A stretch of DNA of 13,490 nt from positions 1-13,490 of the forward strand of contig JBMFUT010000020.1 in assembly GCA_049966395.1 (NCBI GenBank), written 5' to 3'. This document shows, in pieces, positions 812-12,034 of the stretch; positions within the stretch are counted from its first letter, which is position 1, and each line of letters begins with the position of its first letter. The notes beneath the pieces were generated by a model. The model was not told where the DNA came from. It saw only the letters and a list, made by a program, of their open reading frames with translations, and made no database searches. Both the position numbers and the translations under genes were made by a program. Origin of the DNA: Candidatus Micrarchaeia archaeon (GTDB lineage: Archaea; Micrarchaeota; Micrarchaeia; Micrarchaeales; CABMGC01).

Positions 812-918
812 GGGCTCGTAGCTTAGCATGGTTGGAGCGCCCGACTGATATGGACTTTGCTGCATGAGCTGTGAAAGCAGCAATCGGGAGGTCGAGAGTT
901 CAAATCTCTCCGGGCCCA
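812..918 (+). tRNA. tRNA-Ile(GAT) with a 32-nt intron at canonical position 37/38 (851-882); CCA not encoded
   Basis: Acceptor GGGCTCG(812-818)/CGGGCCC(911-917), discriminator A918, D-stem GCTT/GAGC, anticodon stem CCCGA(840-844)/TCGGG(884-888), loop CT-GAT-A|A, T-arm GAGAG-TTCAAAT-CTCTC. Confidence 0.95.
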
Positions 919-2968: not shown

Positions 2969-4030
2969 TCATTTGCATATGGTGCTATTTGCGTAGCATA
3001 TCGCATTGAGCGTGGTCTGCGGGAGCGAAAGATACATGCAATCAGTGACCACTATGGGCGTGGAAGTTATGTTGTAGAATTTGGCTAGCAGCGCCTGCCT
3101 GTTCATCAGCGAAGTCGCGTTGGCCATGCAAGAATCAAGCAAGCTGGAGTTTATTCCTGAGAACTTGGCAAGCTGGCTTAGCGTTGCGGCGGGCACGTAG
3201 CTGTTGGAGTATATGGCATTCAAGCCGCCTACAAACCTAGAGAAGTTCCTTTGCATGCTCGCGCAGAGTATGTACTGACCTAGTGCCTGGGCATTTTGCG
3301 CACCGTACTGCGAAGCGACAATCTGCGAATAAGGCCCATAAAGCACCTTAACCGTCACGTTGAGCTTGCCGCCAAAGCGGCTTGAGAGGTTTTCAATTTC
3401 TTCGAGGCCGCTAATGCTTCCTGGCGCATAAGGGTCTATGAAAAGGTATACTTGCAGTGGATTTTGAATTTCGCATGCAAACTTTCCGGAAGCAAGAATC
3501 ACGCCCTCAGAAACCACCCTATTGCCTACTATCGATGACGGTGCTACGGTCTGCAGATAAGGCACCGCGAGGGAAAGATTGGAGTCGTACATAACCAGGC
3601 TCGCGTAAAGCTTGGCGCCAGAAACTGCGTTTAGAACAGGTATTCTCACAAGCCATTCCCTTGATGTGGGAATGTATGATATGCTCATGTTGCCCACATC
3701 AGAATAGTAAGGTAGCAGGGATAGCGAGCTGTTTATATAACCGTAGCTTGCCAGTATCCTTTCGGCCTGCGCGGCAACTTCAGATTGCGTGTGAATTGGC
3801 GATATGCAGGTGCCGTTGAGCATTCCGTAAGTGCAGTTCTCTGCAGTTGTGTTCCTTACTGATATAGGCTTTGAATAAGAAGTCACCAGGAGCACTGCGA
3901 TCAGCAGCAATACTAGTATTATAAGCGAAACGTGTATGCTGTCGAGGCCGCCAAGCCTTCCGACGCGTTTCACTATTATCTCAGGTTCCTTCCCATGTGA
4001 AGCATTTCTTGCATTCTTTCGCTTTTCCAT
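2969..4030 (-). CDS. Membrane-anchored extracellular protein with C-terminal DsbA/thioredoxin-like domain lacking CXXC
   Basis: Basic N-terminus, one TM helix (LIILVLLLIAVLLV), many N-x-S/T sequons; VYLFIDPYAPGS, YILCASMQRNF and YNITSTPIVV match the DsbA-family layout. Start reassigned to 4030 (GAGTGGT upstream) because the longer ORF runs through tRNA-Arg. Confidence 0.75.
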   Translation of the reverse strand: MEKRKNARNASHGKEPEIIVKRVGRLGGLDSIHVSLIILVLLLIAVLLVTSYSKPISVRNTTAENCTYGMLNGTCISPIHTQSEVAAQAERILASYGYINSSLSLLPYYSDVGNMSISYIPTSREWLVRIPVLNAVSGAKLYASLVMYDSNLSLAVPYLQTVAPSSIVGNRVVSEGVILASGKFACEIQNPLQVYLFIDPYAPGSISGLEEIENLSSRFGGKLNVTVKVLYGPYSQIVASQYGAQNAQALGQYILCASMQRNFSRFVGGLNAIYSNSYVPAATLSQLAKFSGINSSLLDSCMANATSLMNRQALLAKFYNITSTPIVVTDCMYLSLPQTTLNAICYANSTICK

Positions 4031-4047
4031 TTTACCACTCGACATAG

Positions 4048-4152
4048 CGGGCCCGACGGGATTTTCATCAGTAATGTTTGACAAAAACGAATTTGAACCC
4101 GTGACCATCACCTTAGGACGGTGCTGCTCTGTCCAAGCTGAGCTACGGGCCC
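4048..4152 (-). tRNA. tRNA-Arg(CCT) with a 30-nt non-canonical intron in the T-loop at 59/60 (4062-4091); CCA not encoded
   Basis: Minus strand: GGGCCCG-TA-GCTC-AGCTTGGACA-GAGC-A-GCACC-GT-CCT-AA-GGTGA-TGGTC-ACGGG-TTCAAA|intron|T-CCCGT-CGGGCCC-G. Arg identity base A20 and discriminator G present; clean bulge-helix-bulge at the splice sites. Confidence 0.95.
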
Positions 4153-4169
4153 TAAGACTAAATAGAGTT

Positions 4170-4188
4170 AAAGGTATAAATTGTTTTT
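4170..4188 (-). promoter_or_regulatory. Putative BRE/TATA promoter for tRNA-Arg and downstream genes
   Basis: Minus strand AAAAACAATTTATACC, TTTATA about 25 nt upstream of the tRNA 5' end. Confidence 0.55.
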
Positions 4189-4217
4189 GATACTGCGGAG
4201 TTGGAAATGAGCGGTAC

Positions 4218-4904
4218 TCAGAGCAGCGCTGCAAGCCATATAGTTGCGAGGGCAACCAGGGGCACTGTTATGTTGTCATAATTTGAAGGCGTGACTGCTT
4301 CTGCTATAGTGGCCAGGAAAAGCGCTACGAGTATTGCATAGATGTTTGAGTAAAGGCTTATTCCAGCCGCTGCGGCAAATACTAATGTCCCGGCCAATCC
4401 TCCAAGGAAGACTGAAATGCTGCCTTCGAAGCTTTTCTTGCCTTTGAAATAGTGGTGCTTTGAGTACTTTCCCACTATCGGAGCGATGCCATCACCGAAT
4501 GCCATCACGCTTATCGCGGTTATTCCTGCCAGCCCCTTGAACGAGAGAAATGTTATTATGATGAACATTATTGGAAAGAACAGCGTGCCATATAGCAGCT
4601 CTTTAGGATTGCCAGTCCTTGTCATGCTTACTACTGTGGGATCGTCAGGACCTTTTGCCAGCGCTGTATACGCCAGCAAAATTATCCATATGAGCGGGGT
4701 AATTGAGAAAAATTCCCTCTGGAAAGGGCCTGCAAACAGGAACCAAAATATTATGAGCCCGCCGGCCCAGAGGTGCACTATCTTCCTTGACATGTCGCGG
4801 GAAACAAGACGGCGCTTTACCATAGCGTCCATCAGGAAAACTATTACTATTGTGTATAGGAATTCAGCAACCGCCACCGCCGCATCGTATAAAAGATACG
4901 CCAT
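4218..4904 (-). CDS. CTP-dependent polyprenol/diacylglycerol kinase family membrane protein (phytol/farnesol/dolichol kinase-like)
   Basis: Multi-TM protein with SRKIVH, ELLYGTLFF, MAFGDGIAPIVGK, KKSFEGS and AE..YDNITVP motifs. Start reassigned to ATG 4904 (MAYLLYD), 14 nt after the upstream stop. Confidence 0.88.
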   Translation of the reverse strand: MAYLLYDAAVAVAEFLYTIVIVFLMDAMVKRRLVSRDMSRKIVHLWAGGLIIFWFLFAGPFQREFFSITPLIWIILLAYTALAKGPDDPTVVSMTRTGNPKELLYGTLFFPIMFIIITFLSFKGLAGITAISVMAFGDGIAPIVGKYSKHHYFKGKKSFEGSISVFLGGLAGTLVFAAAAGISLYSNIYAILVALFLATIAEAVTPSNYDNITVPLVALATIWLAALL

Positions 4905-4918
4905 AAAACCGCCAAACG

Positions 4919-5644
4919 TTAGGATATCACAGTGCCTATCTCTCCGCCGCTTATTGCCTTCGAAAGCGAGCCGTCCTTCCTCAAGTTTATTATCACGGCC
5001 TTTGTCGCAGTCAGGTGTCTTGCCTCTGAGAGCTTGTTTGCTATGCCTCCAGAAACATCGTTGACTTTCCACAAGTAGCTGCCAACGTCGTCGCCTGGAG
5101 AAACGCGCTTGATCACATTGCGATCCTTGTCATATATTCCATCTACATCTGTGCCAAAAAGCAGGAGCCGCGCCTTTGACGCGTTTGCAAGCTGCACTGC
5201 CATCCTGTCTGAAGAGACTATCGAAATGCCGTTCTTAGAGTCCGCTGGGGCGTCGCTATGCATTACTGGCAGGAATCCCATTTCGGCGAATTTCAGTATC
5301 TTCGAGGTGTCGAAATCTGAAATGGCGCCATTTGATGTAGTTATAGAAGATATAGCTGAGAAGTAGATTGCTGGAAATCCGGCATCTAAAAGAATTTTAA
5401 CAAGCTTTTGCGCAAGCTCGCTCACCTTGTATCTCAGGTAAGCCCAGTGGAGCGCGTTGCCTTCTAGCCTTGAAAGCTTGTAGTGCATGGCTATGCTGTG
5501 GCCGGTGTAGCCTGCTCCTAGAAGCAGTATGATGCTCTCGTTTTTTGGCAGCTCAGAAGCAACCCTCTTGAAAACGCCGTCTGAATAGTCCGTCCCTGTC
5601 TTCTTGTCGCTGAAGGCCGAGCCGCCAACCTTTATTATTATCAT
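4919..5644 (-). CDS. ipk: Isopentenyl phosphate kinase-like protein (amino acid kinase family)
   Basis: IIKVGGSAFSDK, GAGYTGH (IPK-diagnostic His), PVMHSD, IVSSD, GTDVDGIY, DVSGGIANKL, terminal IGTVI. TATA-like TTTTTAA about 30 nt upstream. Confidence 0.82.
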   Translation of the reverse strand: MIIIKVGGSAFSDKKTGTDYSDGVFKRVASELPKNESIILLLGAGYTGHSIAMHYKLSRLEGNALHWAYLRYKVSELAQKLVKILLDAGFPAIYFSAISSITTSNGAISDFDTSKILKFAEMGFLPVMHSDAPADSKNGISIVSSDRMAVQLANASKARLLLFGTDVDGIYDKDRNVIKRVSPGDDVGSYLWKVNDVSGGIANKLSEARHLTATKAVIINLRKDGSLSKAISGGEIGTVIS

Positions 5645-5720: not shown

Positions 5721-6803
5721 TCATCTTGTAATCTGGTAGCTTTTCACTTTCTCGTAAAGCTCCTTGGCCTCGGTATTTTTCTCGAAGTGCTCTCGTATTG
5801 GCTTCACCTCTTTCTCTATGCCCTCCGCCACGAAGTTCTTCAGATCAGCAGGATGCAATTTGCCCTCTTTGTAGTAATTCAGAAGCTCGTTGAAATTCTT
5901 CAACTCTATGTCGCCTCCGAATTTCTGCGGTCTCGCGATTGTGATTGGCGCATTCTTGTCGTCTATTATTATCTTCTCGGCGTAATCTATCATCGGGTTG
6001 CCGTCAGTTATTCTCTCAGGGCAATATGCGCCGTTGATCTTTTGCCTTATCTGGTCGAATGTATCGTGAACGAATATGGAATTCTTTGGATCTGACTTGG
6101 ACATCTTGTACTGCATCAGCGTGGACTCGTCGCCAGACTTGAGATCAGGTGGCATGCCCCTTAATCCTATCAGCAGCGGATGGCTCACTATCACTGGGAC
6201 TTTCCATCCGAATTTCACAGCCACTTCCCTTGCAAGTATGTTTGCCTTCCTCTGATCTATGCCTAGCTGGCATATGTCTATGCCCATCTGGAAAATGTCA
6301 GTAACTTGCATTATGGGGTAGAATATCTGCCCCGCAGAGACCTTCTCGCCCTCCTTCCTGCCCATTATGGTTATGGCTCTCTTTGCCCTGTCGAGCGAGA
6401 CGACGCGGCCGACCTTCATGAAGCGCTCCCAGTACGAAGTGTCACTGATTAGATCCTTGCTCCATATGATCTCTACTTTGCTCGTGTCTATGCCAGCAGC
6501 CTTCCATACTTCAACGAAATACTTTCCCACATTTCTTATGCTCTCTATGTCGCCTCCCATCTTGTTGTTAAGGTATGCAAAATAGTCTGCAAGATAGAGC
6601 TTGAAGTGAATGCCTATGCCTAGCATCTTTTTTATTATCTTTGCCCTGTATACCCCGAAGTGCACAGGCGCTATGCCTGAGGGCTCGAAACCGTCGTAGG
6701 CAACCGGGTGCTCGTTAGAGGAGAACACTTCCCTTAGCTCGTCCTCTGTTACTATCTCGGCTGCAAAGCTCTTTACTACGCCTATTTTGGTTTCGACGTC
6801 CAT
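5721..6803 (-). CDS. tyrS: Tyrosine--tRNA ligase (archaeal/eukaryotic type)
   Basis: AYDGFEPSG, YPIMQVTDIF, QLGIDQRK, KMSKSDP, AYCP and LHPADLK motifs. Confidence 0.96.
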   Translation of the reverse strand: MDVETKIGVVKSFAAEIVTEDELREVFSSNEHPVAYDGFEPSGIAPVHFGVYRAKIIKKMLGIGIHFKLYLADYFAYLNNKMGGDIESIRNVGKYFVEVWKAAGIDTSKVEIIWSKDLISDTSYWERFMKVGRVVSLDRAKRAITIMGRKEGEKVSAGQIFYPIMQVTDIFQMGIDICQLGIDQRKANILAREVAVKFGWKVPVIVSHPLLIGLRGMPPDLKSGDESTLMQYKMSKSDPKNSIFVHDTFDQIRQKINGAYCPERITDGNPMIDYAEKIIIDDKNAPITIARPQKFGGDIELKNFNELLNYYKEGKLHPADLKNFVAEGIEKEVKPIREHFEKNTEAKELYEKVKSYQITR

Positions 6804-7123: not shown

Positions 7124-7498
7124 ATGGGAGTTTTTGACAAATTCGGCAAAGCGCTAGGTGTATCCAAGGAAATGGACATAGAGGACTACATGAATTCGGC
7201 GGAGATGGAGGACGTTGACATACTGAACGAACCCGCGGACATGTATGTCAAGCCTGTCACGATAGTCAGCGAAGACGACGTGAGACTTATAGAGGGCGAG
7301 CTAGAGAAGAAGAACATAATACTGATGAACATAGAGGAGTTGAACAAGAGGCCCACTACAAGGAACAACGTAGTATCGCAGCTCAAGAACTATGTGGCAA
7401 AGGTAAATGGGGACATTGCCCAGATAGACGACAACAGGATACTTGTGACGCCTGCAAAGGTAAAGATAATAAAGAAGAAAAAGCAGGCAAGCAAATAG
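7124..7498 (+). CDS. sepF: Cell division protein SepF (archaeal type)
   Basis: N-terminal amphipathic helix MGVFDKFGKALG, acidic linker, core with NIILMNI, VNGDIAQI and ILVTPAKVKI; GGTG upstream. Confidence 0.92.
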   Translation: MGVFDKFGKALGVSKEMDIEDYMNSAEMEDVDILNEPADMYVKPVTIVSEDDVRLIEGELEKKNIILMNIEELNKRPTTRNNVVSQLKNYVAKVNGDIAQIDDNRILVTPAKVKIIKKKKQASK

Positions 7499-9940: not shown

Positions 9941-10963
9941 TCAAAGTATCTTTTCGAGCATCTCCATCTTCATTGGCGAATAGGCTTCCTCCTTGCTCTT
10001 CGAGCCGAATTTTGCCTTCACTCCTGTTATTATAGACATGACGCGGATCTGGTCGGAAAGCTCAGGAACCATCCTTGCCCCGAATATGACGTTCGCGTCA
10101 GGCGCAACATCCTCTGTCACGCCATCGCCTATTCTCGTCGCGTCGTTTATTGTGAGATTAGATCCTCCAACAACGTGTATGAGCGCTCCCTTGGCGCCTT
10201 CATAGTCGACAGTCAGCAGCGGATGCGCTCTTGTCGTCTTTATTGCCTGTTCCACTCTTTCGGAGCCGGAGCCGTTGCCGATGCTTATGACGGAAGTTCC
10301 TGTGCCCTTAACAACAGCCCTGAGGTCTGCAAAGTCCAGGTTTATCAGGCTTGGCAGCGTTATCGTGTCGGCTATGCCCTTTACGGCATTTCCAACTATG
10401 TTGTCAACAAGCGCGAAGGCCTTCTCTATTGGCAGGTTCGGCACGTAAGAAAGCAGCTTGTCGTTCTCTATTGTTATTATCGTGTCCGACTCCTTAATCA
10501 GCTGCTCTATGCCCCATTCTGCCTTGAGCTTCCTGCTCCTCTCAAGCGCAAAAGGATATGTCACTGCGCCTATTATCGTCGCGCCCTGTTCCTTTGCAAT
10601 CCTTGCAACTACAGGCGCGGCACCGGTGCCGGTGCCTCCTCCCATTCCAGCGCACACAAATACCAAGTCGTAGCCTTCAATTGCTTTTTCTATTTCTGTT
10701 CTGCTGGCGTCAGCACACTTTGCGGCTACTTCAGGGAAGCCTCCGGCGCCTAAGCCGTTTGTAATCTCCTTGCCAAGAAGCAGCTTTTTGTGCGCCCGGG
10801 TTATGTTGAGGTGCGACAGGTCAGTGTTCATTGCTATTGTGTCGGCACTCTTTATTCCGGAGTTGAAGAGCCTGGTGACAAGGTTGCTGCCTTGCCCTCC
10901 TACGCCGACCACGGCTATCCTTGGGGTAAACGCGTCATAATCTATGCTATTCTCGATAGGCAT
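9941..10963 (-). CDS. ftsZ: Cell division protein FtsZ (FtsZ2-like, downstream copy)
   Basis: GVGGQGSN, NTD, GLGAGG, GMGGGTGTG, PSLINLDFAD. Start placed at ATG 10963, which is preceded by GGTGA. Confidence 0.96.
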   Translation of the reverse strand: MPIENSIDYDAFTPRIAVVGVGGQGSNLVTRLFNSGIKSADTIAMNTDLSHLNITRAHKKLLLGKEITNGLGAGGFPEVAAKCADASRTEIEKAIEGYDLVFVCAGMGGGTGTGAAPVVARIAKEQGATIIGAVTYPFALERSRKLKAEWGIEQLIKESDTIITIENDKLLSYVPNLPIEKAFALVDNIVGNAVKGIADTITLPSLINLDFADLRAVVKGTGTSVISIGNGSGSERVEQAIKTTRAHPLLTVDYEGAKGALIHVVGGSNLTINDATRIGDGVTEDVAPDANVIFGARMVPELSDQIRVMSIITGVKAKFGSKSKEEAYSPMKMEMLEKIL

Positions 10964-10984
10964 TCTCTCACCAATTAAATGCAA

Positions 10985-12034
10985 TTATATTGATTCCAGG
11001 TCGCCGAACTGCTGAGATCTTGCCTTCTCCTCGAATTTGCCCAAGATGCTTGCTCCTTTGACTCCTGTGACTATGGCTACTATTTCCACCTGACCCTCGT
11101 AACCCGGTATTATCCTGGCGCCCCATTTAACGTTTGCCTTTGGATCCATGCGCTCAGTTATAACTTCTCCTGCCTTTATTGCGTCTCCAAGCGTGAGGTC
11201 GCTTGCGCCAGATATGTGTATGAGCGCACCCTTTGCGTTCTCGAAGTCAACATCAAGGAGCTTGTTCTTCAGCACTGCATCAGCAGCACTTGTAACCTTG
11301 TCGTTGCCCTTGCCCGTGCCGACTGATATGAAGCCCACGTCGCCGCTTCCCATTATCGACCTAACGTCAGCAAAGTCTATGTTTATCAGGCTAGGCTGCG
11401 TTATTGTCCAGACGAGTCCTCCAATCGCCTTTGCAAGTATGTCGTCAGCAACCGCGAAAGCCTCGTTCATAGGCAGGTTCGGCACAAGCTTCACCAGCCT
11501 GTTGTTGTCTAGGATTATCACGCTGTCGCTGAATTTCCTAAGCGTCTGAATGCCTTCCTCTGCTTTTACCTTTCTCACGCGCTCCAGGTCGAACGGATAA
11601 GTAACCATCGAGACCACTATCGCGCCCTGCTCCTTTGCAATCTGCGCAATTACAGGCACTGCTCCAGTACCTGTGCCTCCTCCCATTCCAGCGCACAAGA
11701 AGACAAGCTGGGCGCCTGAAAGCGTTTCCTCAAGCAAAGGCCTGTCAACTTCAGCGGCCTTGGCGCCTACAGAAGGGTCTCCGCCTGCGCCGAGCCCTCT
11801 CGTTATGCTTTTTCCTATAAGTATCTTCTTTATCCTGTCGTCTATAATTTTGAAGTGCTGAGCATCAGTATTCACAGCAACTAGTTCTGTCCCCTTCACG
11901 CCAACCTTGAGAAGACGGTTGACAGTGTTGTTGCCTGCGCCTCCAACGCCTATTGTCACTATCTTTATCTGTGGCATGTTGCTATTTTGCTCATCGGTGC
12001 TCTTGCCCAAAAATTCGTCCGCAAAGTCTACCAT
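10985..12034 (-). CDS. ftsZ: Cell division protein FtsZ (FtsZ2-like, upstream copy)
   Basis: GVGGAGNN, NTD, GLGAGGDP, GMGGGTGTG, LDNNRL, QPSLINIDFAD; AGGCGA upstream. Confidence 0.97.
   Translation of the reverse strand: MVDFADEFLGKSTDEQNSNMPQIKIVTIGVGGAGNNTVNRLLKVGVKGTELVAVNTDAQHFKIIDDRIKKILIGKSITRGLGAGGDPSVGAKAAEVDRPLLEETLSGAQLVFLCAGMGGGTGTGAVPVIAQIAKEQGAIVVSMVTYPFDLERVRKVKAEEGIQTLRKFSDSVIILDNNRLVKLVPNLPMNEAFAVADDILAKAIGGLVWTITQPSLINIDFADVRSIMGSGDVGFISVGTGKGNDKVTSAADAVLKNKLLDVDFENAKGALIHISGASDLTLGDAIKAGEVITERMDPKANVKWGARIIPGYEGQVEIVAIVTGVKGASILGKFEEKARSQQFGDLESI

Follow-up and report, generated by a model that had tools for sequence, protein, structure and literature searches.

Why would a Micrarchaeota genome keep a spare IPK gene directly beside a gene for a membrane kinase of the prenol-kinase family? 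Both genes lie in the window analyzed here, i.e., the whole stretch of 13,490 nucleotides. A first-pass annotation had read them as a prenol kinase and a prenyl-phosphate kinase acting in succession, thereby letting a host-dependent archaeon bypass the mevalonate pathway. We favor the first half of this proposal, and give a probability of roughly 0.68 to the pair being a portable unit of two enzymes dedicated to the re-activation of free isoprenoid alcohols. Judging from its family, the membrane protein would phosphorylate a prenol to its monophosphate with CTP. The spare IPK, whose family and linkage both point to this step, would then use ATP to produce the prenyl diphosphate. The latter would enter the prenyltransferases, i.e., polyprenyl synthase, GGGP and DGGGP synthases and cis-prenyltransferase, genes for all of which are found in this genome (G000). 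The usual role of the pair would be to supplement an intact synthesis, either by scavenging alcohols or by recycling those freed through dephosphorylation.

The layout of the locus agrees with the initial description: the coordinates and spacing of the two genes and the TATA-like box ahead of them were confirmed (Table 1), and there is no mevalonate gene in the window. The box lies 27 nt ahead of the ATG of the IPK gene, and no TATA-like match occurs in the 60 nt ahead of the membrane kinase gene; the two genes are presumably co-transcribed. The TATA pattern has a background of ~1.6% per 11-nt window and matches between -40 and -28 in 14% of 346 upstream regions of the same genome; of the three patterns used, one was picked with foreknowledge of TTTTTAAG, and the two generic ones also fit by inspection. 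The flanking genes do not belong to the unit. The tyrosine-tRNA ligase gene recurs as a neighbor only in the locus of one near relative, the other neighbors in the window recur in only 2 of 121 loci, both from near relatives, and the pair is not accompanied by any further isoprenoid gene in the compared loci.

Table 1. Coordinates of the pair and of its immediate surroundings in the window.
Feature	Position	Strand	Remarks
IPK-family gene (IPK-B)	5644-4919	minus	241 aa; directly upstream of the membrane kinase gene
Membrane prenol-kinase-family gene	4904-4218	minus	228 aa, counted from the ATG at 4904
Spacer between both genes	4905-4918	minus	14 nt; GGCGG Shine-Dalgarno-like run; no TATA-like match
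TATA-like box TTTTTAAG	5679-5672	minus	consensus match only; A-rich BRE-like stretch before the box
Tyrosine-tRNA ligase gene	5721-6803	minus	flanks the pair; not part of the unit
tRNA-Arg(CCT) gene	4047-4152	minus	30-nt T-loop insert at 4090-4061; downstream neighbor of the pair, outside the unit

Other features of the window deserve mention in their own right. Neither ARAGORN nor Rfam, at its gathering score, reports the tRNA-Arg(CCT) gene. With the insert removed, ARAGORN does recognize it, and it is then the only Arg(CCT) tRNA that the program finds in this genome. The insert recurs, with changes, in two further loci (L234 and L235), and no splice motif could be confirmed at it. Given the position of this gene, the start of the ORF listed at 2969-4255 moves to near 4045. 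The resulting protein (2969-4045, minus strand) is membrane-anchored, with a C-terminal part that looks thioredoxin-like by eye and bears FIDPYAPGS in place of CxxC, and has no Pfam or NCBIfam match. A 107-nt tRNA gene at 812-918 (plus strand), apparently with an anticodon-loop intron, was found by Rfam and missed by ARAGORN. Two tandem FtsZ-like genes, recognized by eye (9941-12034, minus strand), and a SepF gene supported by a profile match (7124-7498) look ordinary.

The upstream gene of the pair encodes an IPK. Its product scores 141.1 bits with the NCBIfam model IPPK_Arch (NF040647), for which the cut-off is 120, vs. 28 bits with the FomA model. Its predicted structure (pLDDT 91.5) best matches 8U0K (TM 0.84), and every structural match listed down to rank 30 is an IPK, with FomA ranking below them. 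In the alignment, it keeps K5, K14, H49, D131, S144, D146 and D166. K5, K14, H49, D146 and D166 are equivalent to the catalytic Lys5, Lys14, His (H50 in Thermoplasma acidophilum) and Asp (D144 in T. acidophilum) and to the nucleotide-site Asp of IPKs, with T. acidophilum numbering taken from the 3LKK alignment. The catalytic His is kept in all 40 distinct kinase-linked IPKs. The motif variants pointed out by the first-pass annotation are all present (GAGYTGH at 43-49, HSD at 129-131 and SSD at 144-146). GAG is not a deviation, since the solved, canonical IPK of M. alvus carries HGAGSFGH, whereas SSD is rare even among linked IPKs (4 of 40).

This enzyme is a spare second copy. A housekeeping IPK encoded on contig C8, between polyprenyl synthase and Nudix genes, outscores it (207 bits) and is only 28% identical to it, i.e., the window IPK is its paralogue. 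The same holds more broadly: 17 of the 19 archaeal genomes that carry the pair (G000, G130, G152-G159, G161 and G165-G172) hold another IPK over the cut-off, and the linked copy is therefore spare.

The membrane protein has no Pfam or NCBIfam match, CTP_transf_1 included, and only two of seven scanned homologues, both close ones, pass the CTP_transf_1 cut-off. It nonetheless has the features expected of COG0170 prenol kinases, being polytopic (about seven hydrophobic segments) and possessing the R-K-x-x-H clamp (R40-K41-x-x-H44), the GDG motif (G137-D138-G139) and the C-terminal E and DN motifs (E202 and D210-N211); it also carries K157. Among 21 aligned rows, R40, H44, G137-D138-G139, E202, D210 and N211 are invariant and K41 nearly so. 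The R-K-x-x-H spacing is that of the clamp described for a model of the Plasmodium prenol kinase (PMC10849223). An Atlas structure match (TM 0.90) leads to a plant cluster automatically named 'putative phytol kinase', while the alignments of the model with CdsA (Z 7.7, rmsd 5.6, 166 aligned) and CarS (Z 7.3, rmsd 2.8, 99 aligned) are within the range of common helical matches. Foldseek gave no match at E 0.001, and a PDB sequence search yielded nothing useful. The closest named homologues are Micrarchaeota proteins, and the labels borne by homologues are loose (dolichol kinase, diacylglycerol/polyprenol kinase, phytol kinase, cytidylyltransferase). A distant homologue of the membrane kinase lies on contig C12 of this genome, two genes away from a cis-prenyltransferase, and is another candidate for a putative lipid-carrier kinase. 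SEC59-like proteins fall outside the clade of the window kinase in a FastTree phylogeny with long branches, which includes no characterized VTE5 or FOLK.

How widely is this arrangement kept? Relatives of the membrane kinase were compared at 53 genome loci, and at 21 of them an IPK gene immediately precedes the kinase gene in the same orientation. Of these 21 cases, 19 are intact, another is broken into two frames and the last has an assembly gap. These loci belong to Micrarchaeota (2), DHVE2/Thermoplasmata-type archaea (8), Asgard archaea (3), Thermofilaceae (5) and bacteria (3, i.e., Caldithrix, KSB1 and an unclassified one); genomes within each group are kin, and the counts overstate independence, which amounts to about six lineages. 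In metagenomes, the pair was found in 29 of 68 loci, 9 others having too little upstream DNA, in a set that overlaps the genome set. Pattern-based scans favor close relatives, and these counts are no census. Several facts count against our reading. IPK is absent beside the kinase in 32 of the 53 genome loci, including those of Ignavibacteria, Chloroflexi and most Micrarchaeota, and in 30 of the 68 metagenome loci. Moreover, a DUF92 (VTE6-family) gene, located on contig C1 and unlinked to the pair, could carry out the second step in this genome. Within Micrarchaeota, the membrane kinase is rare, with 10 full-length matches among the 151 genomes of the order sample and 9 among 301 genomes of the phylum; again against our reading, the pair is kept in only two (G000 and G130) of the 10 kinase-bearing genomes of the order sample. 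The supplementary gene tables of the studies cited in this text, and of five others (PMC12892359, PMC9385802, PMC6359773, PMC6107057, PMC5898192), may also bear on this distribution.

Of the two arrangements suggested by the first-pass annotation, the conserved pair is borne out by these 21 loci; a kinase-IPK fusion was not found in a weak search confined to proteins of 439-2000 aa, where 11 matches were obtained among longer proteins, 6 of them with DUF92 and none with a recorded amino-acid-kinase domain. At the start of one contig (L131:1-693), a C-terminal IPK fragment is in frame with the kinase; this join is probably an assembly artefact and was left uncounted. Cultured Thermofilum has a lipid requirement, on which a literature search returned nothing specific. 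A link between this requirement and the pair is not supported, the kinase clade being present in only 4 of 23 genomes of the family.

The two genes also appear to have traveled together. In the 14 genomes that hold all three genes, kinase distances follow those of the linked IPK, with Spearman correlations of 0.82 over all pairs and 0.67 over the 74 between-group pairs. The agreement with the housekeeping IPK is lower overall (0.43) and nil on the between-group pairs (-0.04), these correlations resting on five groups of kin and bearing no p-value. In a quick tree, the window IPK clusters with DHVE2 IPKs that are linked to the kinase (support 98-100). A single clade of all Micrarchaeota IPKs was rejected in a 32-row quick tree (AU p 1.5e-6), and with it an origin of the window IPK by duplication within the lineage. 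As a further point against our reading, the quick tree does not unite all linked IPKs in a single supported clade and requires 6 changes, 3 of them forced by starred branches; the kinase FastTree contains the same broad groups as the IPK tree. These data support the view that the two genes form a conserved, co-inherited unit, as would be expected of the two-step activation of prenols to prenyl diphosphates put forward in the first-pass annotation.

Bacterial carriers provide the clearest argument for a functional link. The three pair-bearing bacteria all possess Dxr, and two of them lack HMG-CoA reductase. To our knowledge, the MEP route makes no isopentenyl monophosphate. With no IPK substrate made de novo in such bacteria, the IPK likely serves the product of the neighboring kinase. 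In one of them (G162), another, separately encoded protein of 499 aa combines a DUF92 domain with a kinase-like N-terminus, so both systems can coexist. A different association is seen when the window's type of IPK is not linked to the membrane kinase: 10 of 11 such copies lie beside a Nudix gene, vs. 4 of 56 other IPKs, with Pfam confirming 8 of the 10. Nudix-IPK pairs of Micrarchaeales are found in L050, L052-L059 and L064, and also in L047:7321-8689 and L049:6120-7468. In G000 and G130, Nudix adjoins the housekeeping IPK, while the window-type IPK pairs with the membrane kinase. Some Nudix enzymes cleave prenyl diphosphates to monophosphates, and the Nudix gene is likely another source of prenyl monophosphates; our literature search found no paper on Nudix enzymes making these compounds.

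Which alcohols the pair may handle depends largely on the alkyl pocket of the IPK, the known positions of which were taken from two studies (PMC13031432, PMC8500459). Y70, V73, V130 and I140 of T. acidophilum IPK correspond to W67, L70, A132 and I142 of the window IPK, according to both the 3LKK alignment and the IPK alignment. Characterized IPKs range over Y/F/A/S, I/V/T, I/V/T and I/V at these positions, R1 to R4, respectively (PMC8500459). Three of the four residues of the window IPK fall outside this range, and C5 specificity thus cannot be assumed. The earlier suggestion that the motif changes open the pocket to long chains is not supported as stated, since the residue is smaller at only one of the four positions, unchanged at another and larger at the other two; W67 and L70 exceed the size of their equivalents in any characterized IPK, which also counts against our reading. 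Small residues at the first two positions reportedly aid long chains more than at the third (PMC8500459), and the engineered geranyl-phosphate variant is Y70A/V130A/I140A (PMC13031432), of which the window IPK carries one opening change while being larger at the first two pocket positions. The pocket of the housekeeping IPK of the genome (A/T/V/I) resembles those of the more promiscuous natural enzymes. Linked IPKs share further changes: G or A at the V130 position (31 of 40 distinct linked IPKs vs. 7 of 56 others), V at the M77 position (39 of 40 vs. 5 of 56), H, P or S at the Y127 position (39 of 40 vs. at least 12 of 56) and W at the Y70 position (19 of 40), the 56 others including two from a genome marked unpublished (G068), which also figures in the 151-genome tallies and is never the sole basis of a claim here. 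By these alignments, the linked pocket is systematically changed and looks reshaped instead of simply widened, in a direction that sequence alone does not reveal. Granted prenol activation, our own guess gives even odds to C10-C20 chains, somewhat lower odds to C5 and a slim chance to anything else.

The genome itself tells how far the bypass idea can be taken. In this assembly (693,655 bases, 89% complete), which alone represents its genus in our genome search, we found genes for mevalonate kinase and IDI-2, as well as adjoining AcnX-type and UbiD-type genes, which we take to encode phosphomevalonate dehydratase and anhydromevalonate-phosphate decarboxylase. The ether-lipid and prenyltransferase set includes GGGP synthase, a DGGGP-synthase-like UbiA protein, polyprenyl synthase, cis-prenyltransferase and genes of the geranylgeranyl reductase family. 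HMG-CoA reductase, thiolase and Dxr were not found in the 89% complete assembly, UbiX was found in none of seven Micrarchaeota genomes tested, this one included, and G1P dehydrogenase in none of five Micrarchaeales genomes. Looking for mevalonate and archaeol synthesis genes, as the first-pass annotation proposed, thus recovers the lower mevalonate steps and the ether-lipid synthases, and fails to recover the reductase, thiolase and G1P dehydrogenase. The pathway in this assembly is broken at the top, not absent. Three details stand apart. A 523-aa HMG-CoA-synthase-like protein closer to the bacterial model is encoded on contig C3 (L102:5005-6573; 155 bits, cut-off 360). Fused AcnX subunits lie beside the UbiD gene on contig C21 (L173:63-2834), although UbiX was found in 0 of 7 genomes. 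A short IDI-2 fragment directly precedes the full IDI-2 gene on contig C11 (L180:4418-5946), with similar extras in G097. The kinase as a source of DMAP for prenylated FMN was dropped, given the result for UbiX.

Could the pair then exist to replace a mevalonate pathway lost by host-dependent archaea? The missing reductase, thiolase, UbiX and Dxr, together with the downstream lipid genes, speak for it, as does the lack of reductase in 9 of 10 kinase-bearing genomes of the order sample, vs. 72 of 151 overall; a cultured Micrarchaeon without reductase has lipids identical to those of its host (PMC8975820). Beyond this genome, however, HMG-CoA reductase is found in 18 of the 19 archaeal genomes with an intact pair, both other Micrarchaeota among them, G000 being the sole exception; of the 10 kinase-bearing genomes, 7 are members of a single genus, none of the 7 with the pair, and the window kinase is without a match in 63 of the 72 genomes that lack the reductase. 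The lower pathway genes listed above, with the sub-cut-off HMG-CoA-synthase-like gene, would also fit mevalonate uptake, and the assembly is 89% complete. We therefore hold replacement of the pathway to be very unlikely as the reason for the pair, and the comparative data say that the use of host isoprenoids is not why it exists. The mevalonate bypass of the first-pass annotation is thus weak as a general purpose; in G000, where the lower pathway and a separate housekeeping IPK are kept and the upper steps were not found, local dependence is possible. That the pair carries real flux from host or environmental prenols in this genome is accordingly a tentative proposition, with the odds leaning against it. 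A more ambitious version of our reading, in which prenol activation is natural and horizontally spread, the reshaped IPK paralogue is a dedicated prenyl-phosphate kinase (possibly for C15-C20, as a non-homologous substitute for VTE6) and host prenols enter the ether lipids of G000, seems unlikely to hold in full.

The membrane kinase could instead act on a dolichol or polyprenol carrier, or on archaeol, with the IPK as an ordinary C5 backup linked to it only for co-regulation. The loose family labels, the short pocket suggested by W67 and L70 and the frequent separation of the two genes fit such a role, and re-use of archaeol would help since G1P dehydrogenase was not found in five of five Micrarchaeales genomes. 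This alternative is rather improbable in view of the separate distant kinase of the cis-prenyltransferase cluster and the position of such proteins outside the window clade in the fast tree, of the persistence of the pair in MEP bacteria, which make no archaeol, and of a co-inheritance across phyla that exceeds the usual needs of co-regulation. A non-isoprenoid alcohol as substrate, in a detoxification or cofactor step like that of FomA in the same kinase fold, would account for a pocket that differs systematically from those of housekeeping IPKs and for the lack of any other isoprenoid gene traveling with the pair; the 141 bits with IPPK_Arch against 28 with FomA, the ranking of IPKs ahead of FomA among the listed structural matches and the catalytic His of all 40 linked copies leave it a very slim chance. 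Re-activation of free isoprenoid alcohols is the reading that we retain.

Archaea and animals both show measured prenol salvage, but the genes assigned to it come mainly from plants, cyanobacteria and Plasmodium, whose known prenol kinase is PolK (PMC9782597, PMC10849223). A membrane kinase paired with an IPK is a small and directly testable prokaryotic candidate for this function. If it proves true, it would be the equivalent in nature of the engineered isopentenol route, in which promiscuous enzymes take the first step; terpene synthesis would also profit from a natural IPK whose pocket is unusual. For DPANN archaea, the pair offers a concrete way to use host isoprenoids, short of whole-lipid uptake.

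How does the pair compare with known systems? Two-step, prenol-salvage kinase activities were reportedly measured in extracts of Sulfolobus acidocaldarius. The control genome examined for this system has no IPPK_Arch match at 1e-12 and no DUF92 match, and the pair is thus not tied to these activities. The archaeal IPKs of modified mevalonate pathways (NF040647; PDB 3LKK, 3K4O, 7LNT, 8U0K) have the same fold and catalytic residues that are kept in the window IPK, which differs from archaeal enzymes of the housekeeping type as a paralogue with a W/L/A/I pocket and linkage to a membrane kinase. In plants and cyanobacteria, salvage relies on VTE5 (phytol kinase) or FOLK (farnesol kinase), followed by VTE6 (phytyl-phosphate kinase, DUF92/COG1836) (PMC9782597, PMC10849223). 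The proposed chemistry is the same, and the first enzyme is probably of the same membrane kinase family as the window protein (Atlas match to the plant cluster at TM 0.90). The second step of the VTE5/VTE6 system is carried out by a membrane DUF92 protein, the gene for which would be expected to be fused or adjacent in such a system, whereas the pair would use a soluble ATP-dependent IPK, and in G000 the neighbor of the kinase is IPK and not DUF92. Engineered isopentenol utilization and terpene mini-paths combine a promiscuous kinase or phosphatase with IPK, or FOLK with an engineered T. acidophilum IPK (PMC8701039, PMC13031432); according to a 2021 review, no enzyme dedicated to the first step of this route was known in nature (PMC8701039). 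Our literature search, mostly covering open-access articles, found no paper describing a natural prenol kinase-IPK gene pair. The engineered routes share with the pair the conversion of an alcohol into a monophosphate and then a diphosphate, with IPK in second position; they are artificial, whereas the pair is natural and conserved. On our best reading, the pair would represent either a prenol salvage in which an IPK paralogue takes the role of VTE6, or the natural form of the engineered route.
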